From the NCBI GenBank assembly GCA_964529745.1, contig CAZGZR010000004.1, positions 551 to 64,550 of the forward strand: 64,000 bases of DNA, in the 5' to 3' direction. Positions 2,970-63,033 of the stretch are shown piece after piece. Below the pieces are notes generated by a model. That model made no database searches and was not told the origin of the DNA. It saw only the letters and a program-made list of their open reading frames with translations. The position numbers and the translations under genes were made by a program. Each line of letters begins with the position of its first letter. Position 1 is the stretch's first letter. The stretch is from an uncultured Candidatus Bathyarchaeia archaeon. Its GTDB lineage: Archaea; Thermoproteota; Bathyarchaeia; TCS64.

Positions 2970-2984
2970 TATACAAATTGTATA
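2970..2984. promoter_or_regulatory. Palindromic operator copy 1 (TATACAAATTGTATA) overlapping minus-strand TATA-like box
   Basis: 7-1-7 palindrome, one of six copies, all just upstream of start codons. Confidence 0.75.
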
Positions 2985-3040
2985 TTTATGGTTTAGGATT
3001 GGGGCTGCAAAACCCTCATAAACCCCTTTTCAGAGTAGTA

Positions 3041-3121
3041 TTTGGCCCCCGGGAAGGCTAGTGTAGCTCATCCATGGAGTGAGTACCCGTGGCCAAACGG
3101 GATAGCACACCCGGGGCCAAA
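3041..3121. ncRNA. Candidate structured small RNA (multi-branch hairpin)
   Basis: Closing stem TTTGGCCCC(C)GGG/CCCGGGGCCAAA; inner stems GCTA/TAGC, CTCA/TGAG, CCCGT/ACGGG; intergenic. Confidence 0.45.
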
Positions 3122-3243
3122 TTATAACGGGGTCTTACATGGAGGAGCTTTTCAGAGCCGGTTTCGCTCTCGGGATTAAACTCGGAAAAGAGATCAACCT
3201 GACCTCAAACCTTCCAGAAATAGTGAAGACTATACGGGAGGTC

Positions 3244-4086
3244 CTAGCCGCGTCCCAGGTACCGGCGTAGCTTGGCCGTCTTCTCCGCTAAGTCCAGGAA
3301 GTCGCTTAGAGACCTCATGTAGCACAGCAGCACAGCCCACAGCCCCACCCCCAGACCTATCATGCCCCACGCAGAGGGTGTAGAATAGTGAAAGAACAGG
3401 GCCAGAACCGCTATAGCGAAGGCTATTAGGGTGGTCACCGCTTGGGTCCTGGTTATCCACCACGCCTTTGTTCCCATGACGTCTAGCGCCGCCTGCCTGA
3501 AGCCGCAGCCGCTTTCCTCGGGGGCCTCCCCGTCATAGCAGCGTAGACAGTCGGTGTCGTTCTGCATACACGAGGCTGCTATGAACCGCCCCTGATCCAT
3601 GAGCTCCTTCCGCAGCTGCTCCCCCAGATCCTTCGTCTCAGTCAGCGCCTCACCCCACGTCTTCCCATCCTGGATCACCAGCCTTAACCCGTTGTTGGCG
3701 AGCTCCTTAAACGAGTCCAGGGCGTTCGTCGTGAAGCTAAACGGCTTGTTGTACCCCCAATAGACTCGACCCTGCTTCCAGGCCTCCACCCCTAGCTTTT
3801 GGGCGCTTAGGCACGCCATGGTGTAGATCACCGGCGGCGCCTCGTCCACATTATCCAGGTCCACAACCTTTTCGCTGCTGCAGCCGTATAGGGCTGTCTC
3901 GTTGCCGTGGTTATAGAAGGCCAGCAGGTCCTTACCCTTCCAGGCGTCCATTACCTCTTGACGGGTTACAATGCCCCCCTCCAGCTTCACCGGCGGATCG
4001 GGGAAAATGCCGGCAGCCTCCAACCCCCACTCGTGGCTGTATACGGTAACCTCGTCGAACACCGGTGCAACCAGAAGGACGTCCAT
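3244..4086 (-). CDS. Clan CD (caspase/gingipain-fold) cysteine peptidase-like protein with C-terminal TM helices
   Basis: FYNHG and YTMACLSA His/Cys dyad motifs; two hydrophobic C-terminal segments. Confidence 0.6.
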   Translation of the reverse strand: MDVLLVAPVFDEVTVYSHEWGLEAAGIFPDPPVKLEGGIVTRQEVMDAWKGKDLLAFYNHGNETALYGCSSEKVVDLDNVDEAPPVIYTMACLSAQKLGVEAWKQGRVYWGYNKPFSFTTNALDSFKELANNGLRLVIQDGKTWGEALTETKDLGEQLRKELMDQGRFIAASCMQNDTDCLRCYDGEAPEESGCGFRQAALDVMGTKAWWITRTQAVTTLIAFAIAVLALFFHYSTPSAWGMIGLGVGLWAVLLCYMRSLSDFLDLAEKTAKLRRYLGRG

Positions 4087-4087
4087 G

Positions 4088-4324
4088 CTACTTTCTTCCG
4101 TTGACCTGTTCCAGTACCTTCCGTCTAAGCTTAGGGTCCCGCTGAAGACTAAGCATAAACGGCGCTACGACGCCGGACTCTATGGCCGGCGGTATGTTGT
4201 CATGCTCAAGACTGTCCCGGAGCTCCTTGAACGTCATGGACACCATGCCGGAGATCACCTTCTCGTCTGGGCAGGCCTCCGCCTCCATCTTGAGAGCCGC
4301 TATAGCCAGCTGTCTAGTGTTCAT
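4088..4324 (-). CDS. Hypothetical protein
   Basis: 78 aa, operonic. Confidence 0.6.
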   Translation of the reverse strand: MNTRQLAIAALKMEAEACPDEKVISGMVSMTFKELRDSLEHDNIPPAIESGVVAPFMLSLQRDPKLRRKVLEQVNGRK

Positions 4325-4553
4325 CCGGTTTACCCTCGTTTTCCGCTATTTCAACGATTCTCTGAACCGCCGCCTGCGTAGCCTGTCTCTCCACCAGGAG
4401 AGTGTACGCCACAACCAGGACGAGCCCCAAGACTATGAGGACCACGCCCTCAGGAAGAATAAGGCCCTGCTGTACGAAGTCCAGCCCCAAGTAGATCAGG
4501 GCTACACCGACGGACAACAGAGCGCTTTTCCCCGCTTGATCAAGTGAAACCAT
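4314..4553 (-). CDS. Small 2-TM protein (holin-like)
   Basis: Two hydrophobic helices and charged tail; start moved to ATG 4553 (MVSLDQ). Confidence 0.6.
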   Translation of the reverse strand: MVSLDQAGKSALLSVGVALIYLGLDFVQQGLILPEGVVLIVLGLVLVVAYTLLVERQATQAAVQRIVEIAENEGKPDEH

Positions 4554-4635
4554 ACCATATACACAGGGTTCTCCCGATTTAAAATAACCCTCCACCAGTA
4601 GTAATATACTGGACGACCCTAACTATAATCTCGAG

Positions 4636-5187
4636 ATGTCTGAAACCAGCTCAACCCTAGAGTACCTACCTCTAGTAGCTTCGGCGCCCCTAAGGAGCAT
4701 AGGAAGTGCCCTGGACCCCTCGCTAGCTCAAGGACTCGAGGACCAGTTAGTGGCTACCGTCGAGCAGAGAGGCCGCAAGTTCAGCAAGCTCGAGGTGCTG
4801 TACAGTCCCCTGGCGCCGCCGGCGTTGGCTTGGAGGTACGAGTGTCAGACGTGCCGGTTCTGGCAGGATCCCAACAAGTGCAGCATAGTCGGGGTCGACG
4901 ATGTGGACACATACGGGCCTCTCTTCGGCGGAGAAGCCGTAGGGCCCCGTCACTGGTGCGCCCTCTGGCTTAGCCCTGAGGCTGTGCCTCCTCTTCATTG
5001 GCTCCACAGCCAGATTGACCCCCGGGTCATAGACAGCTACCGGACCGCCGCCGTGGCGACGGGCAGTGACGGGCTCCCCGCTCGAGGCGCAGGGAGAAGG
5101 ACGGGCACCGCTAAGGAGCCTACGGGTCCCCTGGGGCGGCTATCCGAGGAGGCCCGCCGGATAAGGCACATGCTTTTAGCCAAGTAG
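4636..5187 (+). CDS. HiPIP-like 4-Cys protein with C-terminal GTAKEPTGPLGRLSEE tag
   Basis: CQTCRFW...CSIVG...VGPRHWCALW resembles the HiPIP C-x2-C-xn-C-xn-WC pattern. Confidence 0.55.
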   Translation: MSETSSTLEYLPLVASAPLRSIGSALDPSLAQGLEDQLVATVEQRGRKFSKLEVLYSPLAPPALAWRYECQTCRFWQDPNKCSIVGVDDVDTYGPLFGGEAVGPRHWCALWLSPEAVPPLHWLHSQIDPRVIDSYRTAAVATGSDGLPARGAGRRTGTAKEPTGPLGRLSEEARRIRHMLLAK

Positions 5188-11726: not shown

Positions 11727-12354
11727 AGAGTTGTACCACCTTGAAGGGTTCAGCCGCGTGATACCCTGCGTGGAGACCCCAATACTCCGCCCTAACCCTT
11801 ATTGCCTCTGGACTCCTTGGGTGCGGCCACGGTCTGCACTCCGTGATGTAGGCCTTCATCGCCTCCACCTTCTTTTCAAGGGTCTCAGCTATATCTACGA
11901 AAAGGTTTGGCTCGAACTCCCCTACTCTCCATACGGTGGACTCGAAGCAGATCAGGTTTATCCTCCTATGCTCCTTTGGTCTCGAGTACACCCGGGCGGT
12001 CTCGTAGATTATCCTGTGATCCTTGTTGAGCTGGGTTGGGCTGTTGGTTATGAGCAGGTTGGGCTCAAGTTCCAGGGCCTCGAACCTTTTGTTTATGTCT
12101 ATCTGGGCGTAGGTGTCAAACCTTTGGTTAGCTAGGTTAAGCCATTTTACATCTGTTACTCCTAGTATAGCGCAGGACGCTACGGCCTGGTCCCTCAGGT
12201 CGTCGTATTTGGGGGCGTGGAGCAGGCCGTCACTGGCGAACACCAGGGTAATCTCTGTCTCTTTCTCTGTGGCCAGCTTCGCTATGTAGCCTCCTGCACC
12301 TATCACCGCGTCGTCCGGGTGGGCGCACAATACCACTACTTTCATCTTTATCAC
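11698..12354 (-). CDS. PIG-L/LmbE family deacetylase
   Basis: AHPDD, DH, KKVEAM..Y and HPRS motifs. Confidence 0.9.
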   Translation of the reverse strand: MIKMKVVVLCAHPDDAVIGAGGYIAKLATEKETEITLVFASDGLLHAPKYDDLRDQAVASCAILGVTDVKWLNLANQRFDTYAQIDINKRFEALELEPNLLITNSPTQLNKDHRIIYETARVYSRPKEHRRINLICFESTVWRVGEFEPNLFVDIAETLEKKVEAMKAYITECRPWPHPRSPEAIRVRAEYWGLHAGYHAAEPFKVVQLYGDISSIPT

Positions 12355-13208
12355 CTTAGGGGGACGTCGGGTAGACGCCCAGCTATCTCCCCGTCTCTAT
12401 AGACTATCTTGAAGGGGAGCTCTTCCAACTGTTCCCTTATCACCGCCGGCAGAACCTTAAGCCCATCAATGAAGCGTTTTTCTAGGGGTACGCAGTGGCG
12501 CCGGCAGTAATCACGATACCATTCGGGGGCTAGTTTCTTCACTTTCTCAAGGGTCAGCCCCTTCTCGGCCTCCACGTACTCGGGTATGGACCCATGGGAC
12601 CCGTCTAGAATCCAGTCCGGTTGACGCATCCGGTACCAGACTCTCCACGCTGGCCTTACTAGGCTCAGGTTCACCCCGAACATTCCCATCATTGTTCTCG
12701 ATTTTAAATCCGGGAAGGTGGGTCTATCCCTCGAGGCCGGTGGATCCGCCTCAATTATCCGTCCCACCTTATGAAACAGCAGCTTGTGAGGGACGTTACA
12801 CGGGGTTCTGTCGAATACATGTGTGTAGTCCCCGCAGAGGTTGATGTCTCCGCAGCGGATCATCCACCGTTTGTTACGGTTCTCTTCAACCAGCCTCTTT
12901 AAAGACTTAGTGCTGTATGGGCCGTCGCTGTTCATGACTAGGTTCGCGTCCTGCATCAATATCCAGGGGTGGCTGCAGAGCTCTATGGCCCTGTAACGAC
13001 TCTCGTACATGAGCAGCCCGCTCTCTATTTTTACTTCTCCCGGAATGTTTAGCTCTGCTAGGGTTTCCTCCGCCTCTTTTACAGTGTTATCCCAACTGCC
13101 GTTATCCAGGACCACCACCTCGTCCGCGAACCCGTCCACACTCTTTAGGGCGAGGGGTATGCTTTCCTCTTCGTTCCAGCTGATCACCGATACGCTGATC
13201 TTAGTCAT
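12351..13208 (-). CDS. GT2 glycosyltransferase
   Basis: ISVSVISWNEE, VVLDNGSWDNT. Confidence 0.85.
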   Translation of the reverse strand: MTKISVSVISWNEEESIPLALKSVDGFADEVVVLDNGSWDNTVKEAEETLAELNIPGEVKIESGLLMYESRYRAIELCSHPWILMQDANLVMNSDGPYSTKSLKRLVEENRNKRWMIRCGDINLCGDYTHVFDRTPCNVPHKLLFHKVGRIIEADPPASRDRPTFPDLKSRTMMGMFGVNLSLVRPAWRVWYRMRQPDWILDGSHGSIPEYVEAEKGLTLEKVKKLAPEWYRDYCRRHCVPLEKRFIDGLKVLPAVIREQLEELPFKIVYRDGEIAGRLPDVPLR

Positions 13209-28348: not shown

Positions 28349-28591
28349 GTGACCGATAGCGACCTTAATACTCTTCTACGGCAGCTGGTGCCGGCGCCGC
28401 CACCGTATCCACCCGTACCCTTGTTTCTGTTAGAGAACGAGACCGCCCTAAAGGAGATTTTTAAACCGACGTTTAGAAATGACATACTTTTAGACTCGGT
28501 TTCGTGGGGTGTAGGTGTAGGGATAAGCCGGATCATAAGACAGGCACTATCACAGTTGAAGATACCTGGAGCAAAAAGTGTGGAGATCTAG
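28349..28591 (+). CDS. Small PPPYPP protein with GxGxG segment
   Basis: PPPYPPVP...WGVGVG; GGAG RBS. Confidence 0.6.
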   Translation: MTDSDLNTLLRQLVPAPPPYPPVPLFLLENETALKEIFKPTFRNDILLDSVSWGVGVGISRIIRQALSQLKIPGAKSVEI

Positions 28592-28593
28592 AT

Positions 28594-31130: not shown

Positions 31131-31541
31131 TTGGGAATACATATAAGCCTTCCCGGACTACAAATGTATTCGGTTTGTGGTCTCTTGAAGAAGGAAATTA
31201 CGCTGACCGTCAGAATGACACCTGAGATGTATGGTTCCATCGAAAAGAACGCGGAGCGGGCGAAAGTCAGTCTAGCCGAGGTGGTTAGAAGGGCGGTACG
31301 GTACACCTTGAGTGATGATGTTCTGTTGGTTTCCTTGAACAACTATGAGAGATCGTACCTGGAGGAAGTGGCCAACAACTTGGGGGTTATGCCGAGTGAG
31401 GCTATAAAGATGCAGCTGCTTGCGATGAAGGTGATGGAGACCTACGGTGTCTTCAAGTCTATAAAGCCAATAAATGAGATGCTAGAAGAGTTAGAATCCA
31501 AGCGTCATATAGAGGAGGATAAAGCAGATGTCCAAACATAA
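31131..31541 (+). CDS. Tandem RHH/CopG-like regulator
   Basis: LTVRMT..MY..I...A....SLAEVVR; true start probably further downstream. Confidence 0.65.
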   Translation: MGIHISLPGLQMYSVCGLLKKEITLTVRMTPEMYGSIEKNAERAKVSLAEVVRRAVRYTLSDDVLLVSLNNYERSYLEEVANNLGVMPSEAIKMQLLAMKVMETYGVFKSIKPINEMLEELESKRHIEEDKADVQT

Positions 31542-34596: not shown

Positions 34597-34611
34597 TATA
34601 CAATTTGTATA
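34597..34611. promoter_or_regulatory. Palindromic operator copy 2 (TATACAATTTGTATA)
   Basis: 16 bp upstream of start 34580. Confidence 0.75.
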
Positions 34612-36537: not shown

Positions 36538-36692
36538 TCTACGCAGGTAGTCTACTGGGAGGAGACTACCTACTCCGAAGGTCTACTAGCAAAAACTACA
36601 GGTAGTAGTCTACCAGTAGACTACTACCCCCCCTATTTCACTAATAGTCAATCGGAGGAGATAGTCTCTTGTCAGTAGACTACCTGCGTAGA
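36538..36692. repeat. 155-bp imperfect palindrome with GTAG(T/A)CTAC iterons; candidate replication origin
   Basis: Perfect 20-bp outer arms (36538-36557/36673-36692) and 13-bp central arms (36601-36613/36616-36628). Confidence 0.8.
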
Positions 36693-36701
36693 CGACAGAA
36701 G

Positions 36702-37256
36702 ATGATTAAACAGCTCACAAAACTAATCTTTCTATCTGATATACCTCACGAATGGGTTCTAGATGAGCTACATAACCTCGTCTTAAACATGAGCAGCTTC
36801 AAGGTTTTGGCCTGCATCCTCAATCACCGGGCAGCCACGGCCTACTTTCTAAGAAGCGAGCTCAAGATGACGAAACCGACGGTCTACAAGTCTCTGAATT
36901 ATCTAAAGGATCAGGGATACATCGTTGAGTCTAGGCCTGTGTCAATTAAGGGGACCAGGAGCGTGAAGGTGTATGCGGTCCCCGATTACACAGCCGACGA
37001 CGTTCTACACGCCAGGGAGAAAGACAGGATCACTAGGACGCCGGCGTACACAGAGGTAGAGAGGATATACCAGGCTATGCTTGACGATTATCTCCTGTTG
37101 AAGATAACTAACTATCTGCCTGAGAGGAAAAAGATCTACACCGGTTCGCTGAACGAAGTGGGAAGAAAACTCGTCAAGGGCGTAAGGTGGCTGGATATAC
37201 AGCCTATGGTTCTACAGAAATTTGAGGATCAAGGCTACAAAGTAGTAGTGGGGTGA
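36702..37256 (+). CDS. Winged-helix protein, candidate origin-binding initiator
   Basis: LKMTKPTVYKSLNYLKDQGYIVE wHTH; directly before mcm; ATG 36702. Confidence 0.75.
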   Translation: MIKQLTKLIFLSDIPHEWVLDELHNLVLNMSSFKVLACILNHRAATAYFLRSELKMTKPTVYKSLNYLKDQGYIVESRPVSIKGTRSVKVYAVPDYTADDVLHAREKDRITRTPAYTEVERIYQAMLDDYLLLKITNYLPERKKIYTGSLNEVGRKLVKGVRWLDIQPMVLQKFEDQGYKVVVG

Positions 37257-43755: not shown

Positions 43756-44382
43756 TCACCACTTCCTATCGAAGCTTTCTTTCATCATGGTGCCGGCTAT
43801 CTTCACGTAGTACATCGCCTGCTCTATCCTCTCCCAGCCGAGGACGTCCTTGATCTCGTAGGGGCTGAACCCTTTACGGGCTAGCATGGTCGCAAAGGTG
43901 CCTCGGAGGCAGTGGGGGAAAAGCCGGTGGTGTAGATCGGTTCTGTCTTCCAGGTCTGTGAGGAGACGGTTAACGTATTGGCGCCAGGGGTATACCTCCA
44001 TTACCTCTCTGTGGTCCTTGTAGAACCACTTCAGTTGATCTTTGTACTCGGGGACGACGGGTATGGTGCGGGCCCCCGCCGGCGTCTTTGGCTGCCAGTA
44101 TCCTGAGGGCTTGGTGATCTTGTTTTTCTTGTTGCGGTACTCTTCTCTGCAGGGGGTGCAGTCGCACTTCATTCGGGAGGGTATTGTTATTATCTCCCGG
44201 GGCCAATTCACCCAATCTTTTTTCATGTGTGTGAACTCGCTTACCCTGAACCCGACGTAGACGAGGCTGCGGAACGAAAAATCGTCTAGTCGGGTGGCGC
44301 AGGCGTCTAGCACGGCGTCAACTTCCGGATCGGTTAGAATGTTTTCCTTTGTCTTGGGCTTAGAGTAGTCCTTGCGAGTCAT
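43756..44382 (-). CDS. Compact tyrosine recombinase, SNJ2-like integrase
   Basis: GFRVSE, CDCTPC insert, WQPKT, HCLR, LGW, catalytic Y; 208 aa. Confidence 0.85.
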   Translation of the reverse strand: MTRKDYSKPKTKENILTDPEVDAVLDACATRLDDFSFRSLVYVGFRVSEFTHMKKDWVNWPREIITIPSRMKCDCTPCREEYRNKKNKITKPSGYWQPKTPAGARTIPVVPEYKDQLKWFYKDHREVMEVYPWRQYVNRLLTDLEDRTDLHHRLFPHCLRGTFATMLARKGFSPYEIKDVLGWERIEQAMYYVKIAGTMMKESFDRKW

Positions 44383-44420
44383 TGTGTTACATCTCTTTCA
44401 ACTTATGTAATAAGTCTTAA

Positions 44421-44762
44421 GTGCGTAGGGAGAACGGCTTAGGTGAGGCCACCATTTTGGTGAAAGACGAGATCGACGAGATAAAGAAACGCATGATGCG
44501 TGAGATTATCAAGGAACACAAGGACCGCAATGATCTTACTGAGGCGCTAGCCTTCCTCCGGGAGATACGCGCAATGGCGGTACAGATGGATTGGGATCCA
44601 TGGCTGACGAGGCAGGCGCTGGTGATGGCCCTCGAGTTCGACACCTTGGCCGCCTTGGAGAAGGGCGTAACTCAGCAGCAGCTGGACAACTTTGATGCCC
44701 CCGTGAAGGTAAACGTAAGGGAGCTTCATGAGGAGTTCAAGAGACACGGGGTGAAGTGGTGA
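44421..44762 (+). CDS. Hypothetical protein
   Basis: Helical ORF divergent from the integrase. Confidence 0.6.
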   Translation: MRRENGLGEATILVKDEIDEIKKRMMREIIKEHKDRNDLTEALAFLREIRAMAVQMDWDPWLTRQALVMALEFDTLAALEKGVTQQQLDNFDAPVKVNVRELHEEFKRHGVKW

Positions 44763-50408: not shown

Positions 50409-51404
50409 ATGCAGACAAGCGACTATGAGGAACCCATAGAGGCCCCCAACAGGTGCTCGGAGTGTGGCTCTAGAAACTTGGTAACCACTCAAGACACCCT
50501 CGAGGTAGTGTGCCGCGACTGTGGAACTGTATTGACGACGGTAGTGGCCAACCGAGATAGAGAGTGGAGGGCCTTTTCCTACGATGAACACCAGACACGA
50601 ACAAGAACGGGCCCGCCTCTTGATAGTCGTATAGAGAAGCCGTTGACGACGTACATACCTCAGAACGGCATAGACACGAACGGGAACCTTCTGGACTTAG
50701 AGACCCGACGACAGATGCGACGGATCTCGAGGTGGAACAACAGGGTTAACACCTTCGACTCCAGGGATCGAAACTTCAGGATAGCACAGACAGATCTTCT
50801 TACAATAAGAGATAACCTAAACATCCCTAACGGAGTCTATGAAACCTCTCTGTTTGTCTACCGTAAAGCCCTGGACGCATCGCTCATTAGAGGAAGAACG
50901 ATAAAAGACATAGCGCTGGCAGCCATGTACATGGCGTGCAGAATCAATGATCACCCCATCTCCATCACCGAGTTTGCGGAGAAGGGGGACTTAAAGAAGA
51001 AAGACCTGGCCCGCTGCTACCGGCTGCTGATCCGAAACCTAGACATTGATATCCCCAACCCTCAAGAGAAGCAGAGGATAAAGCGTATAGCTAACAAGCT
51101 GGAGATGAACCTTACAGTTCAGCAGTACGCATACCTGATCCTCCAAGAAGCGAAACGGCTGAGATCCACCATAGGTAAAGACCCAAAAGGATTAGCAGCG
51201 GCCGCACTCTACCTGGCTCAGAGATATATTGACTCTGGCGAGAAACCTAAAACACAGGAAGAGATAGCAAACGAAGCTAAAACGACGGAGGTAACCGTCC
51301 GTAACCGGTATAAAGGGCTCATAAATGACCTAGGCGAGGAAAAACTTCTCGAGATAAGAGACCACCTAAGAGGCTCGAATTTCTACTTTTCTGATGCCTC
51401 ATGA
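50409..51404 (+). CDS. tfb: Transcription initiation factor TFB (TFIIB)
   Basis: CSECG..CRDCG ribbon, EWRAF, RTG, two cyclin repeats, GKDP.GLAAAALY, TTEVTVRNRYK. Confidence 0.95.
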   Translation: MQTSDYEEPIEAPNRCSECGSRNLVTTQDTLEVVCRDCGTVLTTVVANRDREWRAFSYDEHQTRTRTGPPLDSRIEKPLTTYIPQNGIDTNGNLLDLETRRQMRRISRWNNRVNTFDSRDRNFRIAQTDLLTIRDNLNIPNGVYETSLFVYRKALDASLIRGRTIKDIALAAMYMACRINDHPISITEFAEKGDLKKKDLARCYRLLIRNLDIDIPNPQEKQRIKRIANKLEMNLTVQQYAYLILQEAKRLRSTIGKDPKGLAAAALYLAQRYIDSGEKPKTQEEIANEAKTTEVTVRNRYKGLINDLGEEKLLEIRDHLRGSNFYFSDAS

Positions 51405-55543: not shown

Positions 55544-56242
55544 TTAAGAAGAGGCTCTACTATAATGCTCTAAGGCTTCTTTTCCCTTTTCCGTGATCCT
55601 GTATCGGGCTCGGTGATGCCTAACTTTGGTACTTGGATTGATGCTTAGATGCCAGTCCGAGGTTATCATGCCTTCATCCAGGAGTGTCTTTAGGCTGCGG
55701 CTGTAGCTAGCATATTTCCTGTTGGCCTTAGCGGTGCCCTCATGAAGTTCATCTACCCAGTCAAAGTGTTTCTTCACCACGGGGCTGTCTTTCATCTCGG
55801 GATGCTCGAGGGAGAGCCTGACCGCCATTATGCGGCCCATGAAGTTGTAAGGTGCAGCAGACTGCCCTATCCTCTTTCCCATTAAAGCCGAGGCTACTTT
55901 CATCTGAGGAGGCGCGTGGTCATACTCATGGTCCCAATAATCTATCGTTTGTAGACCTGTTTGACCTGGGCGGACTCTGTACTGTTTCCCCATAGCCTCT
56001 ATTTCCTTTATTTTCTCCTCAAGCTTCTCTTCTGGGACCACAACCATCTCCCAGCCCCATTTTCTCCTCTCTGTATAGGGGGTGATCCCCTCGGCTCTCA
56101 AGATGATCTCCGTCTGCTCTATGCCGTGGGTTGCCTCATGGTATCCATGCTCCTCGGGGTCCTTCAAGTCGTTGAGTACCTGGAGTATGCTAAGCATCTT
56201 TTTTCCCATTCTGAACCTTCTCATGTGTGGAGCGCTCCTCAT
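55544..56242 (-). CDS. Winged-helix protein with large internal insertion
   Basis: SYSRSLKTLLDEGMI...RYRITEKGKEAL. Confidence 0.65.
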   Translation of the reverse strand: MRSAPHMRRFRMGKKMLSILQVLNDLKDPEEHGYHEATHGIEQTEIILRAEGITPYTERRKWGWEMVVVPEEKLEEKIKEIEAMGKQYRVRPGQTGLQTIDYWDHEYDHAPPQMKVASALMGKRIGQSAAPYNFMGRIMAVRLSLEHPEMKDSPVVKKHFDWVDELHEGTAKANRKYASYSRSLKTLLDEGMITSDWHLSINPSTKVRHHRARYRITEKGKEALEHYSRASS

Positions 56243-56328
56243 AACTTAACGTTTAGTCAGTTAAGGGGAGCCCATCAGAACATATAAAAGTTAAGTTACC
56301 CTCGTCAAGGAGGTTAAGCCGTGAGTAA

Positions 56329-56877
56329 GTGCGGATATCCGCACGAACTCTTTCCTGTTTGGATATCCGAACAAGAAGGCGAAGACCGTCTTCACCTAAG
56401 GAGTTAATATTATCGATGGATCAGTTTTCCTAACTATGCTTGAGCCGTATGGCGCCCACTTTAGTATCTTGACGTCTATTGCGTTAAGTAGATCGACGTG
56501 CTTCCAGTAAACCGGATGTGTCTTTCTCTTGGCTATGATCCCTCTCTGCGTGAGCCTGTTCAGTGAGCGGTTCACCGAGTACCTGACATCTTCGTAGGGG
56601 CGCCCAGGAGGCCAGTCAGGATCCCCCATGTGAGCCATCCCATAATATATGCGTTGATCTAACGGTAGCCTCTCGAAGAGCTTACAGTATTTGGCGACGT
56701 CGGGGTATAGTGCACAGGTTACTTCCTTTGTTGTCATCCAGCCCTTGTTCTCCTTGAGGATGCGAAGGATATCCCGCTGTTCGTTGCTTAGTCCTCTTCC
56801 CATTTCTATCGGTATCAGAGTTAGAGTGATACCATTAAAAAGTTTGCGGGTTGGCCTATACGTTCGGATATCCTAAT
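56329..56877. promoter_or_regulatory. Three GGATATCC-centred palindromes (56329-56344, 56356-56373, 56862-56877)
   Basis: GTGCGGATATCCGCAC perfect; TGTTTGGATATCCGAACA; GTTCGGATATCCTAAT. Confidence 0.5.
56396..56803 (-). CDS. Winged-helix regulator with insertion
   Basis: LSNEQRDILRIL..MTTKEV...SVNRSLNRLTQRGII. Confidence 0.7.
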   Translation of the reverse strand: MGRGLSNEQRDILRILKENKGWMTTKEVTCALYPDVAKYCKLFERLPLDQRIYYGMAHMGDPDWPPGRPYEDVRYSVNRSLNRLTQRGIIAKRKTHPVYWKHVDLLNAIDVKILKWAPYGSSIVRKTDPSIILTP

Positions 56878-57047
56878 GAGAACGTATTATCCATATTAGC
56901 GAAACGGTGGTGGTAAAATTAACATGTTTAATGAAAACAGGGCTGAGGCTAGATCATGGGCTGCTGAAAAACATGGGTAGAATTAACAGATTTGTGTAAC
57001 CGTTAATCAATAATACTTCCTCTTGTGCCCGCACGAGAAAAAAGGGT

Positions 57048-57302
57048 TTAGAGGTTTAGTTCGCCTAGAACCTTTCCGTCCTGGTGATAGTGTTCCTTGA
57101 GGGCTTTCTTCAATGGGGCCAGGGCGTAATCGATCTCTATCTCCCGGACGTAGCCTATTGCGTTATCCCTCTCGGCGACCACTATAGCCATGATAGTCTC
57201 TGTTATGGCTGAAGCTTGCTCGGGCTCCATGATTCCGCTTAAGCGGTCTCGAAGGACGTCTAGCTGAGCCTCTGCCTCTTCTGATAAAGTAGGGTCTTTC
57301 AA
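57048..57302 (-). CDS. Hypothetical protein
   Basis: 84 aa, preceded by operator. Confidence 0.6.
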   Translation of the reverse strand: MKDPTLSEEAEAQLDVLRDRLSGIMEPEQASAITETIMAIVVAERDNAIGYVREIEIDYALAPLKKALKEHYHQDGKVLGELNL

Positions 57303-57323
57303 CTCAGAACCTCAGAATCAGGT

Positions 57324-57338
57324 TATACAACTTGTATA
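57324..57338. promoter_or_regulatory. Palindromic operator copy 3 (TATACAACTTGTATA)
   Basis: 21 bp upstream of start 57302. Confidence 0.75.
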
Positions 57339-57468
57339 TTTATCGTTTATGTGGAGAATGGCACCGCCGTAGAAATGGGAAGGGTCAGGATGCCTGAAGG
57401 GTGCCCTAGAGCCCTTCTTGAGGCCACACACTACGACGGTGCACAAATAAAGAAAAGGGCACCCGTGT

Positions 57469-58464
57469 TTATCGTTTGCGGTATCTGCTCCGATATTTCC
57501 TGAGGGTGTCCACCAGCTGGTCGACGTCGGCCTTGTTGTCGCAGAGTCGGCTAACACGTACCGCCTGCCGGACGTTCTCGGTGCCGAGGTCGCTACAAAC
57601 CTTCTCAGCTATGTACCTGGCTAAGTCTTCCGGTGTGCCTCCCATGATTAAAAGGTTGGTGGAGACGTTGAGAAACTGTTCCCGGGTGTACTCAGAGAAA
57701 TACAGCTGCTCAAACCTGCTAAGCAACTCGGCGCTGAGCCCCTTGACCGTATTAGCCGCCGCGAACACGACGGTTCCCAGCTGATCCTCTCGGTACCGCT
57801 GATACATGGTCTCGATAACCCTGCCGGTCTCCATGAGGCTAAGCAGCGGCGCGACGTCACGGTTACGGAGCTTATCGATCTCGTCTATGAGAAGAATCCT
57901 AGGCCGGTAACCCATGAGAAAATCGCTTAACCCTGGACCGGTTAGTCTGGACCCCAGCAGATAGTAGCTTCCAGGTATGCGTTCGAGCTCCATGAGGAAA
58001 AGCGTCTTAGCGCTTGCCGGCGGCCCATAAAGAAGCCAGTTGACGCGAACACCCATGTCGAGGGTGCGACGCAGCTGCTGTTTAACGTCGTCGTACCCTA
58101 TCACGCTGCTGAATAGGTCCGCCGGCGCCGTCGGTATCGTTACGGGGGCCGCGTCCTCCAGTTGGTTGACACCCACAGCCATGAGTGCCTCAGGTATGGC
58201 TTTAGGGTGCATGGTGACGTACCCGGTGCCGCTGTTAGACTTGTACACGCGCCGGAGAATCCCCCGAAGGTGCATAAGGTGCAGCAGCGGGGGGCTTATC
58301 GGCGGGCTGAAACTGTCCCACTGCCATCCCAACGTAAAAAAATAGGGGTCCTGGTAGTGCTTTTTCTCATAATCGTGAATGCGCTCAAGGTCCCCAGTGA
58401 CATTGGGGCGTTCATCAAGCAGCCTCAGTATCTCGATGACCACGGGTACCTTATCGATCTCCAA
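57469..58464 (-). CDS. AAA+ ATPase with N-terminal helical/wH domain
   Basis: YGPPASAKT, LLIDEIDK, AAAN, LLSRF. Confidence 0.88.
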   Translation of the reverse strand: MEIDKVPVVIEILRLLDERPNVTGDLERIHDYEKKHYQDPYFFTLGWQWDSFSPPISPPLLHLMHLRGILRRVYKSNSGTGYVTMHPKAIPEALMAVGVNQLEDAAPVTIPTAPADLFSSVIGYDDVKQQLRRTLDMGVRVNWLLYGPPASAKTLFLMELERIPGSYYLLGSRLTGPGLSDFLMGYRPRILLIDEIDKLRNRDVAPLLSLMETGRVIETMYQRYREDQLGTVVFAAANTVKGLSAELLSRFEQLYFSEYTREQFLNVSTNLLIMGGTPEDLARYIAEKVCSDLGTENVRQAVRVSRLCDNKADVDQLVDTLRKYRSRYRKR

Positions 58465-58466
58465 GT

Positions 58467-58661
58467 CTAACCCTCACTTGAAACGAGCTCAGTTGGGTAC
58501 CATTTCCCGTCTTTAATGACGATATGCCCCTCACGGTCTAGTTCAAGCAGCTTCATGCTCCAGGAGTTTTTCCCTAGGTGTAGATGATCGGCTAACTCAA
58601 GGCCGTTGAAACGGCCGGGGTTCTCTCGTATAGCGTTTAGTGCTCGGTCCTTGTTTGTCAA
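58467..58661 (-). CDS. Small wHTH protein
   Basis: AIRENPG..GLELADHL...LLELDREGHI; start approximate. Confidence 0.55.
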   Translation of the reverse strand: MTNKDRALNAIRENPGRFNGLELADHLHLGKNSWSMKLLELDREGHIVIKDGKWYPTELVSSEG

Positions 58662-58663
58662 GT

Positions 58664-60148
58664 CTACGCAACCGCCTCTAACTCTAACTCGTGTAGCTTC
58701 TTTATGTAACGCTGATACTGATTTAACCGGTCCTCGGGAGCGCAGTTGATGCAGTTGATAGATCCGTCCTCCAGTCTGATCTCGCGGCCGTCGGGTATAG
58801 CGGCGCCGCATTCCTCACAGGTGTAGCCTTCAACCGCTGGTGTGGGTTTAGCCGGGGGCTCGGGCTCCGGTATAGGTTCGGGCGCCGGCTCGATGGGTTC
58901 AGTGGGTTCTATTATCTGTCTACTTGATAAGAATAACCTTGTGTGCTCTTCTCCGTATATCGATCCCTCGTTCGCTCGCCAGATAGTCCCGTCCAGGTCC
59001 TTGTAGTCCATACTTGGATTCTTTAACTTGTTTATTGCCCTCTTCAATGCGTCGACGGCCGTGATCCCCCGGAAATGGGTCCAGGGGTGTGACTCATAGC
59101 CTGCAGCGGGGGAAATAGAAACTATGGGGCTGCCTCGAATATTATCCTTATCCTTGATGGATATGCTGTACTTGTGGTGTATCAGGTCTCTTAACTCGTT
59201 GTAGAGTTCGTCGATGGTCTCCACCGTTTCTTTAGTACGAGATAAAGGTTCGCCTTTACAATAGGGACAAACTATATCCGACTTGGATATGGTTTTTCCG
59301 CAGTGTCCGCAGCGGTACACTATCTCCAGGGGCTTATACAGCGTCGGAACAGGGCTCCAGTCTACCCACTCGGCGCCTAGATAGTTTCCGCCTATACAGG
59401 GGGCAATGTAATAGTATAGGTGACCCCTGTAGATCTCCGCGTCTACCTTGATGGGCATATCCGTAGATAGGGAAAGGGTTACTACCTCGGCTATTTTGCA
59501 CACCTGGTTAAAGAAGGGCGCTAAGTAGCCTACACTGAAGTTAGCTATTTGATGGGTACCGGCGTTGTCGTTATACTTGAGCTCTAGTATGTGGTCACTG
59601 CTTCTTTTGAGGGGTATATCCTCAGCGGATTCGTCGTCGTTGGCCCCAAACTTAACCTGATCCTCGGATAGTTTGATGCTGAAATGCTCGTAGCCGTTAA
59701 AGTCCTTCAAGACGGATCTAATAGACTCGGTTACTAGGCGTACCTCGGACTTGTAGAATATCCTGGGCTCGGGAACCTCCTCGTCGGGGGGCTCCAGTAA
59801 AGGGATCCGTTTCTCTCTGCGTAGATCGTCCGTGTAGACGAAAAGCAGCCGGCCTTTCTCCTCCTCTAACTCGATGGTTAACATGGCGTCCAGCTTCTTA
59901 GCGTTTGACCGGAAAACCGTGTTACGCGCCTTCACGACATTAAAGAAAAGGGTCCTCGTCTCGGTGCACTCGTACACGTCAAAAGCGTCCGCCGGGATCT
60001 CGAGGTCAAGGAGCCCCATGTGGCCGGGGTCCATTGTCACTAGGGTTACCTTGTCGGGGTAGAACGTAAAACGCGCCTCCTCAACTAAGGTACCCACTAC
60101 ATAGAGCAAATCCCGAATAAACTCGGGTCTACTTGTTTCTAACCTCAT
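58664..60148 (-). CDS. pcn: PCNA sliding clamp with ~245-aa C-terminal extension
   Basis: MDPGHMGLL, LSTDMPIK, YYIAP core; then Zn ribbon, unknown domain, P/E linker, CEEC..CINC. Confidence 0.88.
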   Translation of the reverse strand: MRLETSRPEFIRDLLYVVGTLVEEARFTFYPDKVTLVTMDPGHMGLLDLEIPADAFDVYECTETRTLFFNVVKARNTVFRSNAKKLDAMLTIELEEEKGRLLFVYTDDLRREKRIPLLEPPDEEVPEPRIFYKSEVRLVTESIRSVLKDFNGYEHFSIKLSEDQVKFGANDDESAEDIPLKRSSDHILELKYNDNAGTHQIANFSVGYLAPFFNQVCKIAEVVTLSLSTDMPIKVDAEIYRGHLYYYIAPCIGGNYLGAEWVDWSPVPTLYKPLEIVYRCGHCGKTISKSDIVCPYCKGEPLSRTKETVETIDELYNELRDLIHHKYSISIKDKDNIRGSPIVSISPAAGYESHPWTHFRGITAVDALKRAINKLKNPSMDYKDLDGTIWRANEGSIYGEEHTRLFLSSRQIIEPTEPIEPAPEPIPEPEPPAKPTPAVEGYTCEECGAAIPDGREIRLEDGSINCINCAPEDRLNQYQRYIKKLHELELEAVA

Positions 60149-60173
60149 TTTCTTGTGGCCTCCACCCTGAAAA

Positions 60174-60188
60174 TATACAACTTGTATA
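60174..60188. promoter_or_regulatory. Palindromic operator copy 4 (TATACAACTTGTATA)
   Basis: 25 bp upstream of the PCNA start. Confidence 0.75.
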
Positions 60189-60202
60189 TTTAACAGTTAA
60201 GG

Positions 60203-60222
60203 GGTGTAGCGATCGCTACACC
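60203..60222. terminator. Perfect 20-bp palindrome GGTGTAGCGATCGCTACACC
   Basis: Lies just past the stop of 60232..60366; terminator role is inferred. Confidence 0.4.
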
Positions 60223-60231
60223 AGGTTAATT

Positions 60232-60366
60232 TTAAGCACCTTCAAGAAAACGGTGCAGGTCCTCACGTTCACGACGCCGTCGGCGCCATCGACGTATAGG
60301 CTCCACTGCTACATAACCCAGCACAAAAAGAATGTAGATGATACAGACTAAGGTACAGGGGTTCAT
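60232..60366 (-). CDS. Small TM + poly-Arg peptide (not in ORF track)
   Basis: MNPCTLVCIIYILFVLGYVAVEPIRRWRRRRRERE..., ATGA overlap. Confidence 0.55.
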   Translation of the reverse strand: MNPCTLVCIIYILFVLGYVAVEPIRRWRRRRREREDLHRFLEGA

Positions 60367-60517
60367 GGGTTGTACGGCTCGATCGTTATTCTAATCAGGT
60401 CAGGGATTTTGAGGGTTTCTTTAACCCACTCGGCTGTATCGTCCTGACTCATGACGTCCTCACTCTCCTGGTCCTCAGTCTTCAAGAGGGTATAGAAAAG
60501 CTTAGAATCCGGCACGT

Positions 60518-60832
60518 CTAACCGCCTCGTGCCGCACTTAGCTTTTTTTCTACCGTCTCGGTTATGTGGTCCCATAGTTGGGGCTCAGTCATGACGGCTG
60601 CATAAAGCCTACGGTGTCCACCCTTACCGGTGGTTTCGGTGAAGTCGCATACAGTTTCGTCGACCATAGCGTTTAAGAAGTTGATAACTGAGGCTCGACT
60701 GATCGATCCCCTGGTCTCAGGGGACAGTCCTAACAGGTCGTTGACTTTTAGCCATACGTCCCGTGAAGACAGGTTTTTATTGGAACCCCAGAGTATACGC
60801 AGCATTTCCTTCTGGTAGTCCTTAAAGATCAT
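60518..60832 (-). CDS. BlaI/MecI/CopY-like winged-helix regulator
   Basis: MLRILW...SSRDVW...SRASVINFLN.MV...RLY. Confidence 0.7.
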   Translation of the reverse strand: MIFKDYQKEMLRILWGSNKNLSSRDVWLKVNDLLGLSPETRGSISRASVINFLNAMVDETVCDFTETTGKGGHRRLYAAVMTEPQLWDHITETVEKKLSAARGG

Positions 60833-60888
60833 TTCTAAGCCCTCCTGTGATAGGTCCAGAGATAAACTTGTTATTTTTTTTCCCTCCT

Positions 60889-61412
60889 TTACTTTTTATT
60901 CTGCCTCTCAGCTAAATTAGCTGAGGTCTCGGCTGTACCTTTCACCTGGTAAAACAGGTAACCCCCAGGGGCCACCACGAGATCAACGCTGTACTGTGGA
61001 ACCTCTACACACGCGACGGCCTGAGTTAACCGGTTCAACACCTGGATCGCCTCTTCTCTGGCTGCAAACTCTGACCGTCTACGCCTCAGGTAACCCTCAT
61101 AGCTGTACGGTATACCCCAAGCGGCATAAGCAGCCCTGGCCAACGCCTCCAGACAAAACCTTGAGGTCTGGACCCGGATCGGCTTATGGACCCCATAGCA
61201 CACCAGATCACCATTTCCGGCCTTTTCCAGCTGCTCGCCGCATACACCGCATTTTATGCTGAGCCCCGGCGCGTCCACGCTGGGCTCCAGCGCCGGCGCG
61301 TATTGTGCTATTGGGTAGGGCTCGATCGTGAACCATAACCAGCGCCGGGGGATAACCCCCCAGGGCTTAGCAGTGGGCAGCTTAGCTTTTAACGGATAGA
61401 TCATGAGCCCCA
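60889..61412 (-). CDS. Zn-ribbon hypothetical protein
   Basis: CGVCG...C..H; start approximate. Confidence 0.55.
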
Positions 61413-61415
61413 GGG

Positions 61416-62111
61416 TCACCTGTTGAAGTGTTGGGCCCAATACTCGGGGCGTAGTATCTCGCTGTGATCGAAACCGTCGGAGTCGCATAACTCCTTATAG
61501 AAACGGCCTAGGGGCGTAGGGTATTCTTTAATCCCCTCGGCCGTCTCAGCGTAGGCGTCCTTTTTCGGTAGGTTGATCAGCTCTATGTAAACGTCCCCGT
61601 CTCTCCAGTTTAGCAGCGTTATGAGATCGTTAATGGCCTCGAGGTCCTGGGTGTAGTTGTCGATCGCTATGTATGCGTAAAAGCCCCAGTGGTCCTTATT
61701 CCAGTCGCTGGCCCATATCTTGATCCAGTCGCCTGGCGGCTCAGCGTTAACGGTGTTCCAAAAGCCCTTATACTTCAATGCGTAGGGCTTAGCCTTCAGC
61801 TGCTCCTCAAGGTGCCGGCGCCGGTCCTCGCCTCGTTTTAATCCGTTCCCTGGCGTGTGGTGCCTGTACAGGTAGCCGTCGACGGGCTCCCCGTTGACCT
61901 CCTTATGGTCTAGGCATCCCTCGCAGCGCTCCTTAGTGATCCGATATAGGCACGTCATACAGGTGATCAGGGGCGTATCAGTGGTGAAACTTATCTTGCA
62001 GCTTATGCACCGGTAGATCCCCTGATCGGGGTCTTCGCATGTTACCCAGCGGCCTAATCCGCAGCTGGGACATTTCCCACTCGTTGAGTGGGTTAGTTGT
62101 GTGGCCTCCAT
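61416..62111 (-). CDS. Cys-rich (multi-Zn) hypothetical protein
   Basis: CPSC, CISC, CMTC, CEGC. Confidence 0.65.
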   Translation of the reverse strand: MEATQLTHSTSGKCPSCGLGRWVTCEDPDQGIYRCISCKISFTTDTPLITCMTCLYRITKERCEGCLDHKEVNGEPVDGYLYRHHTPGNGLKRGEDRRRHLEEQLKAKPYALKYKGFWNTVNAEPPGDWIKIWASDWNKDHWGFYAYIAIDNYTQDLEAINDLITLLNWRDGDVYIELINLPKKDAYAETAEGIKEYPTPLGRFYKELCDSDGFDHSEILRPEYWAQHFNR

Positions 62112-62129
62112 GTTTCCACCGTATAAGCT

Positions 62130-62144
62130 TATACAACTTGTATA
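62130..62144. promoter_or_regulatory. Palindromic operator copy 5 (TATACAACTTGTATA)
   Basis: 18 bp upstream of start 62111. Confidence 0.75.
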
Positions 62145-62183
62145 TTTAACGTTTAAGGCTATGTTTATGTTTAAGAAAAGGGG

Positions 62184-62639
62184 TTACTCGGGCCGGTATT
62201 TCTCGGGACCCTCGGTTAAAACGCCTCGATCGCTTATCTCGTGTTCGCACTCGCAACACTCGACGACTCCATAGGTATCACCTGGCTCGACGTTTTCGTA
62301 TCGGCCGGTTTCTGGGTTAAATTCCCAGGTGCTGCGCTCCTGATAGTACACAGTCTTAAGCGGACGACAACACTGGGGACAATAGGGCGGCGCGTAGACT
62401 CGGGGCGCCTGATCCATCTTAACCTCCAGAGTCTTTAGATAGGGTATAGACTCAGCTATTAAATCAAGGGCCTGGGGGATCGTTGAAGTGTCCCCCAGGT
62501 TGTCGCCGTTCATGCCTCCAGCTGGGTTAACGTAGTGGTAACCTACCGAGTATGGTTTCTCCGAGTCCTCCAGGTTGTGATAGATCACTACCGTAAGGGC
62601 CTCGTTATCCTTTTTTGGTTCTTTACTCACGTCGATCAC
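62184..62639 (-). CDS. Zn-ribbon hypothetical protein
   Basis: CPQC, CCEC. Confidence 0.6.
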   Translation of the reverse strand: MIDVSKEPKKDNEALTVVIYHNLEDSEKPYSVGYHYVNPAGGMNGDNLGDTSTIPQALDLIAESIPYLKTLEVKMDQAPRVYAPPYCPQCCRPLKTVYYQERSTWEFNPETGRYENVEPGDTYGVVECCECEHEISDRGVLTEGPEKYRPE

Positions 62640-63004
62640 CTGGGCCTGTGATCTGGGTACAACATGGACCCAGTTAATTGAACCATGTAGTCGCGGCCGC
62701 TCATTGCCTCGACGTACTCGATGATTGCGTTTTGCTTAGACGCCTCCAGCTGCTCGAACCGGATCACGTCATGCGCCAGCATAATCGTTAAGTCGCAGCT
62801 GTAACAAGCGGCGCACCGTTCGCAGTAATCGACGGTTTTACCTTTTCTGAAACGCTGGATTATACGCTTAGCGTGATCGGCGGTGTGATATCCTATAGAT
62901 CCGTCGACCATAGCTGCGATAACCCAGGTTTCGCCTTTCTCTTTTAGGGCCGCGTCGATCAACTCGATGCGGTCCTTTTCCGTTTCTGTGGCCTCATTGT
63001 TCAC
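62636..63004 (-). CDS. Hypothetical protein
   Basis: CERCAAC; start moved to GTG 63004 because the longer ORF begins inside the operator. Confidence 0.6.
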   Translation of the reverse strand: MNNEATETEKDRIELIDAALKEKGETWVIAAMVDGSIGYHTADHAKRIIQRFRKGKTVDYCERCAACYSCDLTIMLAHDVIRFEQLEASKQNAIIEYVEAMSGRDYMVQLTGSMLYPDHRPR

Positions 63005-63018
63005 TAACGAACACCGTT

Positions 63019-63033
63019 TATACAAGTTGTATA
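63019..63033. promoter_or_regulatory. Palindromic operator copy 6 (TATACAAGTTGTATA)
   Basis: 14 bp upstream of GTG 63004. Confidence 0.75.

Follow-up and report, generated by a model that had tools for sequence, protein, structure and literature searches.

What protein reads a perfect 15-bp palindrome, TATACAAnTTGTATA, that stands in front of six gene runs on one archaeal contig, and what does its binding do there? The contig, C4 (64,740 bases), belongs to a genome of 161 contigs (2,832,564 bases); it is a foreign mobile element, with a likely host among the Bathyarchaeia, and was analyzed over a 64-kb window (positions 551-64550 of the contig; all positions below are those of the window). 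On balance, we favor the view that the palindrome is the operator of a dimeric repressor encoded by the element itself, by which six promoters would be silenced together; we infer the binding, the sign of regulation and the transcription start sites from the DNA sequence.

A palindrome shared by six promoters

A preliminary description of this DNA had reported six perfect palindromes with 7-base arms around a single centre base, starting at 2970, 34597, 57324, 60174, 62130 and 63019, and all six were confirmed as exact matches, the only ones in the window. Dinucleotide-preserving shuffled controls contained no match of any kind in 100 trials. With up to three mismatches allowed, the window holds ten matches against 1.63 expected; the four extra ones all have three mismatches and none has one or two, so there are no intermediates. 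When all 161 contigs were scanned, no copy with 0 or 1 mismatch was found beyond the six on C4, and ten copies with two mismatches were scattered over the genome. Of all palindromes in the genome that combine 7-base arms with loops of 0-4, it is the most recurrent and the sole one concentrated on a single contig. None of the six copies lies inside a convincing gene, so the proposed regulatory role is not contradicted by an equal frequency within genes.

Outside this genome the motif occurs singly. It is present as one copy in 10 of 400 other genomes of the same class and in more than one copy in none of them; a reversed-pattern control matched 13 of the 400 (our own count from the table). A scan of IMG/VR with the 15-mer returned, among the matches listed, only single copies on different contigs, and the 19-letter form (18 specified bases) gave 18 single matches on contigs of 20-35% GC, except for one of 64%. 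The proteins of the element were matched on those 18 contigs only by way of the glycosyltransferase ORF (open reading frame) 12351-13208, and weakly (29% over 93 aa). A metagenome scan with the 19-letter form found at least 119 stretches. At 129 loci, comprising those of the metagenome scan and the ten single-copy class genomes, no second copy was present, and the only matches to element proteins were to the TFB in one class genome and, weakly, to a glycosyltransferase. As the rest of the genome lacks the motif and none of the 400 class genomes has it more than once, a host regulon is improbable and the binding factor is likely to be encoded by the element.

An alignment of the six regions shows all 14 arm positions to be invariant in every copy, with all four bases represented at the centre, and beyond the arms only scattered single bases are invariant. 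The motif accordingly has the dyad symmetry, free centre, presence at several promoters and absence elsewhere that are expected of an operator. As first described, each of the copies has a minus-strand start codon 14-25 nt downstream (Table 1). For copy 6 this start is the GTG at 63004, which is also that of the database gene call (P0073, 122 aa). The string CTTAAACgtTAAATATA is common to four copies, and at 2970, 57324, 60174 and 62130 the minus strand reads the TATA-like TAAATATA into the palindrome, again in agreement with the preliminary description. In these four the shared module is longer, (C/T)TAAAC-NN-TAAATATACAAkTTGTATA, and the other two have unrelated flanks, with AAATTATA (63019) or ATATTATA (34597) in the same place. 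The first four bases of the palindrome are the last four of the TATA-like 8-mer, that is, the left arm forms the 3' half of the box. All six sites thus have an A+T-rich 8-mer that resembles the TATA box of the host and begins 33-44 nt ahead of the start codon, a promoter-like distance. A word like the TFB-recognition element (BRE), (C/T)TAAAC or TTAAC, precedes the TATA by 2-3 bases at four of the six sites and is lacking at two; the four resemble the GTTAACG carried by promoters of the host lineage. Promoters of related archaeal genes have a BRE-like word followed by TTTAAATA or TTTATATA about 35-48 nt before their starts, and exact TATA-like words show a weak enrichment 30-45 nt before the starts of 1,286 long ORFs in the genome. 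Archaeal transcription starts about 30 nt after the 5' end of the TATA box. If this usual spacing applies, the dyad would cover approximately -26 to -11 relative to the predicted start sites, and the leaders would be 3-14 nt long. Two other uses of the sequence were considered and rejected: the downstream arm, TTGTATAA, starts 21-32 nt before the start codons, which is too close for most to be a working TATA box, and a hairpin cannot form from a 7-bp stem with a 1-nt loop and A+T-rich arms.

In archaea, the sites of repressors are typically found on the TATA box or directly behind it. In the mechanism that we propose, a homodimer (or dimer of dimers) encoded by the element would bind the 15-bp dyad and exclude TBP and TFB, or RNA polymerase, since with its left arm the dyad takes up the 3' half of the TATA box and with its right arm the DNA from there to the start site; assembly of the pre-initiation complex would then be blocked. 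The units of six strong BRE/TATA promoters would be held silent together, namely the module of PCNA, a small winged-helix protein and an AAA+ protein, the run containing 60518-60832, and four groups of small genes, and loss of the repressor would fire all six at once. The perfect dyad with its free centre, kept at 14 of 14 positions despite unrelated flanks, suggests that both arms are read, either by one symmetric dimer or by two dimers. Because the sites at 34597 and 63019 share no flank and yet keep all 14 positions, selection on the dyad is indicated rather than copying of a cassette.

A diverged relative offers some support for this. The region is present in three DNA runs of one sediment study, and one of these runs, compared with 56000-64000, contains the element itself and a 19,015-base contig of lower depth; the element reaches a depth of about 100 in the sediment. 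Stretches of this relative that align at ≥80% form islands at 58219-58395, 58806-58829, 59750-59974, 60609-60646, 61567-61752, 62649-62689 and 63130-63209. A further island, 60108-60201, spans the palindrome at 60174-60188 with gaps only at 60149-51 and 60165-66, and a 29-nt island at 62130-62158 consists exactly of palindrome, TATA and BRE, with non-alignable DNA on both sides. Fragments from a second run have the same joints. Orthologs of 60518-60832 (P0003, 56% identity) and 62636-63004 (P0074, 67%) are listed in the protein database on a contig of this same length. The promoter module appears to stay alignable while the proteins diverge to 56-67% identity, which supports conservation of the module and is no proof of it. 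Contigs of the sequencing runs break at a T8A9 tract just upstream of palindrome 6 (63040-63075).

Several points weigh against a repressor operator. The start sites, and hence the placement at -26 to -11, are predictions, and the sequence does not fix the sign of regulation. Six identical sites exceed the information that specificity requires, and could reflect recent copying of promoters combined with the constraint of the TATA box. Conservation of the dyad in the relative is judged from alignability at ≥80% and not from the letters within the palindromes, and no further motif-bearing relative was found among the matches listed from IMG/VR and the metagenome scan or in the 400 class genomes.

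Alternatively, the palindrome could be a core promoter element specific to one class of promoters and recognized by the basal machinery, for example TBP with the element's own TFB; it would then mark a temporal class of strong promoters with no dedicated repressor. A full-length TFB is indeed encoded by the element, the motif extends from within the TATA box into the bases that follow, where TFB/TFIIB also touches DNA (the downstream BRE of eukaryotes), and the whole BRE-TATA-palindrome cassette is common to four sites. TBP/TFB complexes are asymmetric, however, and leave a perfect 7-1-7 dyad with a free centre unexplained, and at two sites the dyad is retained where the shared BRE is lacking. 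Because the BRE/TATA at the four strong sites is similar to that of host promoters (for example GTTAACG-TTTATATT), a special TFB does not seem to be required, and we regard this explanation as quite unlikely. An activator or host factor that recruits or stabilizes TBP would also be compatible with the sequence, from which the sign of regulation does not follow, and the poorer TATA/BRE flanks at 34597 and 63019 might need such help, but known archaeal activator sites lie upstream of the BRE and not over the TATA box or the -12 region. The position over the TATA box disfavors this explanation, as do the near-consensus BRE/TATA at four sites, which should be strong unaided, and for a host factor the absence of any copy from the host chromosome contigs; it seems slightly less probable still than a core element.

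Genes under the palindrome and promoters without it

The six copies head six minus-strand gene runs, whose members are listed in Table 1 with the other features mentioned in the text. The PCNA gene and the run with 60518-60832 had been named as targets, and this was borne out (palindromes 4 and 5). TATA-like words without the palindrome occur in at least ten further upstream regions of the element, so the palindrome marks a subset of the promoters and is not a general promoter feature. The positions of the sites uphold the association with promoters and the overlap with TATA-like words that were originally described. The earlier designation as a regulon of early and replication genes is only partly apt: one target operon joins the PCNA fusion to a clamp-loader-like AAA+ protein, but no palindrome precedes the main replication gene, that for MCM. 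For two of the first genes, 33879-34580 and 2523-2948, atlas look-ups scored below 0.9 and gave no lead. Homologs of the 62636-63004 family (AAMVDGSIGYH...DYCERC.AC) occur on a 223-kb contig labelled Candidatus Methanoperedens by a source.

Table 1. Positions of the palindromes, the octamer GAGGCCAC, candidate regulators and other features (window coordinates)
Feature	Position	Strand	Remarks
Palindrome copy 1	2970..2984	-	TATACAAATTGTATA on +; 21 nt before TTG start of 2523-2948; run: 2523-2948 and about eight small ORFs
Copy 1 module with TATA/BRE	extends to ~2998	-	From six-region alignment
Octamer GAGGCCAC	2952..2959	-	10 nt after palindrome 1; in mini-ORF GTG GAG GCC ACG GGT TGA
Palindrome copy 2	34597..34611	-	16 nt before TTG start of 33879-34580; upstream flank ATATTATA, no TAAAC element; run: 33879-34580, 33207-33803, 32831-33154
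Palindrome copy 3	57324..57338	-	21 nt before start of 57048-57302 (the run); preceded by CATAAACGATAAATATA
Palindrome copy 4	60174..60188	-	25 nt before ATG of PCNA fusion gene; within island 60108-60201; run: PCNA fusion, small winged-helix-like ORF 58467-58676, AAA+ protein
Octamer GAGGCCAC	60155..60162	-	11 nt after palindrome 4; in mini-ORF GTG GAG GCC ACA AGA AAA TGA
Palindrome copy 5 with TATA and BRE	62130..62158 (palindrome 62130-62144)	-	TTTAACGTTTAAGG on +; 18 nt before next start codon; 29-nt island in relative; run: 61416-62111, 60889-61488, 60518-60832
Octamer GAGGCCAC	62101..62108	-	21 nt after palindrome 5; codons 2-4 (E-A-T) of 61416-62111
Palindrome copy 6	63019..63033	-	14 nt before GTG (63004) of 62636-63004; upstream flank AAATTATA, before that T8A9 tract; run: 62636-63004, 62184-62639
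Octamer GAGGCCAC	62988..62995	-	23 nt after palindrome 6; codons 4-6 (E-A-T) of 62636-63004
PCNA (residues ~10-250) fused to zinc-ribbon-rich C-terminal half	58664..60148	-	First gene, palindrome 4
AAA+ ATPase, weak clamp-loader similarity	57469..58464	-	PHROG 168, E 1e-5; last gene of PCNA operon
231-aa protein, several CxxC pairs	61416..62111	-	First gene behind palindrome 5
122-aa conserved protein (AAMVDGSIGYH...DYCERC)	62636..63004	-	First gene, palindrome 6, then 62184-62639
P0001, 104-aa winged-helix protein	60518..60832	-	Third gene behind palindrome 5
Small putative winged-helix protein, ~69 aa	58467..58676	-	DUF7343, E 0.0025, below threshold; PCNA operon
135-aa putative winged-helix protein	56396..56803	-	HTH_24/MarR_2, E ~0.007; own promoter TTTTTAATGG and GGTATCA-N9-TGATACC
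232-aa protein, C-terminal winged-helix-like region	55544..56242	-	HTH_45/PadR, E ~0.002
198-aa protein, weak ParB-type helix-turn-helix	33207..33803	-	E 0.013; second gene behind palindrome 2
195-aa TrmB/MarR/Lrs14/Sta1-like regulator	36669..37256	+	Just upstream of MCM; not behind palindrome
136-aa ribbon-helix-helix protein	31131..31541	+	RHH_1, E 5.8e-5; not behind palindrome
Full-length TFB (TFIIB) homologue of the element	50409..51404	+	36-43% identical to five host copies
Palindrome-free promoter-like regions (examples), upstream of the ORFs given	55544-56242, 56396-56803, 36421-36678, 26652, 25853, 28504, 4636, 45922

Four of the six palindromes have a second element in common, the octamer GAGGCCAC, which stands 10, 11, 21 and 23 nt behind them; C4 contains 12 copies of it and the genome 225. 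Behind palindromes 1 and 4 it falls within mini-ORFs of 5-6 codons (GTG GAG GCC ACx ... TGA) on the minus strand. The stop codon of the first (2946-2966) overlaps a TTG start (TTGA), and that of the second (60146-60166) overlaps the ATG of the PCNA gene (ATGA). Behind palindromes 5 and 6 the octamer encodes E-A-T near the start of the first gene, and this tripeptide is retained in the relative's ortholog of 62636-63004, P0074 (MIVEATKTE). The octamer may be a start-site or 5'-leader element, a means of coupling through leaderless mini-ORFs, or a remnant of a copied cassette of promoter plus first codons.

A different type of promoter is seen before 56396-56803, where the minus strand carries TTTTTAATGG and then GGTATCA-N9-TGATACC (56804-56840), and TTTTAATGGTGATATACC at 36384-36400 on the plus strand precedes 36421-36678 and the TrmB-like gene. 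This second promoter type, with its inverted repeat, may be a separate autoregulatory site.

Four of the palindromes cluster within 5.7 kb, beside replication genes and an AT-rich tract, and the element encodes an integrase and two DNA methylases. These features would suit copies with no regulatory role, such as recombination or replication-origin sites, targets of a methylase or nuclease, or leftovers of promoter duplication. The half-site TATACAA also lies inside ucm (ATTATACAAAC), an 11-bp element of Sulfolobus origins whose binding protein UBP interacts with MCM (PMC12141716), and this element likewise carries MCM along with PCNA. The ucm, however, is a single non-palindromic origin element bound by a monomer of a beta-rich, saddle-shaped protein, in contrast to the promoter dyads found here, and the match is of 7 bases only (PMC12141716); the shared 7-mer is probably due to chance, since UBP is beta-rich and binds DNA as a monomer. 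Every copy of the palindrome has the same place and orientation relative to the TATA-like box and start codon, none is inside a gene, and duplication leftovers would not keep 14 of 14 positions next to completely diverged flanks. A non-regulatory origin of the copies therefore appears highly improbable.

Searches for relatives of the regulated genes added little. The PCNA and TFB proteins had no relatives in IMG/VR, 61416-62111 had none in the 70 other genomes of the family searched, and the AAA+ protein search found three distant loci. A pair of PCNA and AAA+ genes without the palindrome is present on G258:C43 (L345, L347-L349; 121-3935), a contig of 65.6 kb and 51% GC from another genome of the same family. 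This contig has six copies of TTCCTCCAAAA, reading TTTTGGAGGAA on the gene strand and extended to CTTTTGGAGGAAAA in 3-4 copies. Before its PCNA gene, where the sequence was read, the word ends 5 nt ahead of the ATG, and it looks like a shared ribosome-binding module rather than a palindrome.

Candidate binding proteins

The product of 60518-60832 (P0001) had been put forward as a BlaI/MecI/CopY-like, autoregulated repressor that binds TACA-N3-TGTA as those proteins bind TACA-N2-TGTA. BlaI, MecI and CopY are dimeric winged-helix repressors that act on TACA/TGTA dyads with N2 spacing in bacterial sigma-70 operators. They consist of an N-terminal winged helix and a multi-helix C-terminal dimerization domain; BlaI-type repressors are partnered by the sensor proteases BlaR1 or MecR1, and CopY has a C-terminal CxCx4CxC metal site. 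The label is weakly supported. AlphaFold2 gives P0001 a confident winged-helix model (pLDDT 91.4; helices at 5-16, 23-33 and 46-58, a hairpin at 62-79 and one C-terminal helix at 83-101), the sites have the TACA/TGTA dyad, and half of the family touches Penicillinase_R (PF03965), with matches at E ≤ 0.1 in 21 of 42 members (best 3.4e-6); 11 of the 42 match PadR. P0001 itself, however, has no match to PF03965 even at E ≤ 10, let alone at the curated score, and the precomputed PF03965 label is attached to just 3 of its 72 database homologs. By fold (Foldseek against the PDB), AbfR2/Lrs14 came first (E 2.5e-4), followed by PadR, Fur and RosR, with the BlaI-like Rv1846c ranked ninth and BlaI (1sd4) 41st, all at TM 0.5-0.65, and a PDB sequence search with the family profile gave nothing significant. 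The model has a single C-terminal helix where a three-helix, BlaI-type dimerization domain would be expected. The CopY cysteine motif is absent (P0001 has one cysteine), and no BlaR1/MecR1-type family was found among the Pfam matches of the element's 109 ORFs. The sites, too, differ in reading TACAAnTTGTA, i.e., TACA-N3-TGTA, and in lying over a TATA box. P0001 is a genuine winged-helix regulator that is only loosely BlaI-like, and its family occurs almost only in Bathyarchaeia. Prediction of a homodimer returned 'no answer' (score 0.00), which counts neither way.

The pairing of P0001 with the palindrome was examined through its relatives, which were found in 164 stretches of species-representative genomes, several per genome and many on large chromosomal contigs. 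The best 80 of the 164 (1.02 Mb, L127-L206) and three IMG/VR contigs made up 83 test loci. The palindrome with 0-1 mismatch is absent from the 80 chromosomal loci, in which two 2-mismatch copies lie far from the gene, and the three IMG/VR contigs have no copy within three mismatches. Neither TACAAnTTGTA, ACAAnTTGT nor TACA-N2-TGTA occurs near any of the 83 family genes; TACA-N3-TGTA is found twice near these genes and 5 times elsewhere in the loci, too few to show enrichment. The genome's own four paralogs (C152:2642-3040, C1:39135-39500, C11:12146-12559 and C19:35185-35361) have no exact palindrome, and one chromosomal subfamily has TGAAGG-N16-CCTTCA around its own TATA box instead. The palindrome and its core are missing from the 83 loci even though the DNA-reading motifs, SRAS.IN.LN of the recognition helix and TGKGGHRR.Y of the wing, show little or no variation among the 42 homologs aligned. 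The proposed cognate pairing was thus not supported. It should be noted that 12-13 residues separate helix 2 from the recognition helix in P0001-P0006 and a few others, against 7-9 in the chromosomal loci (measured in 75 of 80; the other 5 and the three viral loci did not fit the pattern), so the negative test does not cover P0001's own subclade, and the longer loop might change specificity.

As it stands, P0001 appears to be linked to the palindrome by synteny only, through its place in the operon behind palindrome 5. The 19-kb relative retains its ortholog, P0003, along with the promoter islands. One of the ten genomic 2-mismatch copies, TATACAAGTTGTAAC (G000:C19:35186-35200), directly follows a chromosomal P0001 paralog, lying over its stop codon and 36 nt before the next gene; a rough estimate puts this at about 1 in 100 by chance, and chance may be all that it is. 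With at least six other candidates on the element, it is unlikely that P0001 is the cognate repressor. On both C1 and C19 a P0001-family gene is followed by that of a conserved protein of ~95 aa.

The other candidates comprise at least six putative DNA-binding proteins, given in Table 1, and several zinc-ribbon proteins; most of these matches are below curated thresholds. A PDB sequence search with 56396-56803 gave nothing significant, and the Sta1/Lrs14 label of 36669-37256 comes from NCBIfam. The ribbon-helix-helix (RHH) protein 31131-31541 scored 19.4 bits against an NCBIfam cut-off of 60 for the aCcr1 family, outside which it falls as a generic RHH_1 protein. As binder of the palindrome, each of these proteins taken singly is doubtful at best.

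A more far-reaching scenario is that mobile elements captured the long-loop subclade P0001-P0006 and retargeted it to TACA-N3-TGTA over the TATA box, as a master switch that would silence the clamp/clamp-loader-like module and regulators until induction. In a bolder variant, recognition of the dyad may be shared with the element's private TFB, and promoters of this class could then be fired by the element alone. We give this scenario little credence; if true, it would make this the first Bathyarchaeia element with a defined regulon and regulator-operator pair.

Known systems and the mobile element

A shared operator over the TATA boxes of a mobile element's promoters is a known principle, and what is new is this instance of it, in a lineage without an experimental system. 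Bathyarchaeia are abundant and uncultured, and we know of no experimental knowledge of transcription control in their viruses or plasmids. SSV1 F55 and SIRV1 SvtR are reportedly small virus repressors that act on repeated sites over the TATA or start of several early promoters; those sites are said to be tandem or imperfect repeats, in viruses of Sulfolobales, whereas the element has six identical perfect dyads. In the text available for a paper on Bathyarchaeia viruses (PMC10848311), the words 'promoter', 'TFB' and 'PCNA' do not appear and only putative transcription factors are mentioned. Among the papers checked, none was found with both half-site words in an archaeal promoter context.

In size and layout the site matches the box of Ss-LrpB, a dimeric archaeal winged-helix regulator. 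This box is a 15-bp, A+T-rich palindrome (TTGCAAAATTTGCAA in the probe) with the same 7-1-7 arrangement, and the dimer contacts two major-groove segments and the central minor groove (PMC1802622). The arm sequence is different, however, and the site is in the control region of the regulator's own gene (PMC1802622). No Lrp/AsnC protein with a RAM domain was found among the 109 ORFs of the element with Pfam. The aCcr1-box is similar in another respect: it lies between the TATA and start codon, its small binder is also encoded by viruses, and its authors propose that formation of the pre-initiation complex is blocked (PMC9976878). It differs in being 9 bp, degenerate and of another sequence, in belonging to a host regulon (Sulfolobales) and in having a 58-aa RHH protein as its binder (PMC9976878); the RHH protein of the element, 31131-31541, is not linked to the palindrome.

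The system offers a testable handle: a single probe of 15 bp, the six promoters in their natural form and a few small candidate proteins that E. coli can produce. If one of these binds, it would define a regulon with a virus-type PCNA and a clamp-loader-like module, reveal the promoter geometry of the lineage (TATA to start) and supply a portable repressor-operator pair for archaeal in vitro transcription. If none binds, a perfect dyad over a TATA box will need a new explanation.

The contig stands apart from the rest of the genome in GC content (51.0% vs. 57.3%) and in tetranucleotide usage (correlation with the rest of the genome of 0.63, compared to 0.98-0.99 for typical large contigs). Its proteins were annotated with Pfam, PHROGs and NCBIfam. 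They include MCM (37261-39318), a tyrosine integrase, two N6/N4 DNA methylases, ParA, a glycosyltransferase and methyltransferase block, a subtilase and a beta-helix protein. Hints of a virion are confined to a weak, partial match to terminase (E 1.2e-5) and a 'tail fibre' match of the beta-helix protein. A Bathyarchaeia host is likely, since relatives of one element gene occur almost only in records titled Bathyarchaeia or Bathyarchaeota, and the MCM, TFB and PCNA resemble the copies on the other contigs (51%, 36-43% and 36% identity, respectively); the contig is a putative member of this bin. Long homopolymer runs (C, G, T) at the ends of C4, just outside the window, are likely assembly artefacts. 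The genome (G000) has other outliers in composition, namely C6 (63 kb, GC 49%, tetranucleotide correlation 0.56) and, to a smaller degree, C2 and C1, and the bin may hold further foreign elements.

PDB sequence searches gave nothing significant for 46315-48126, and for 28504-30402 (+, 632 aa) the only match was to an intein endonuclease (PI-PkoII, E 7e-5), in keeping with an inserted LAGLIDADG/intein-like segment (Pfam LAGLIDADG_3). The integrase gene and a small gene divergent from it (43756-44460) are separated by a 38-nt spacer that contains TTACAT-N12-ATGTAA, a possible control region for int and excision.

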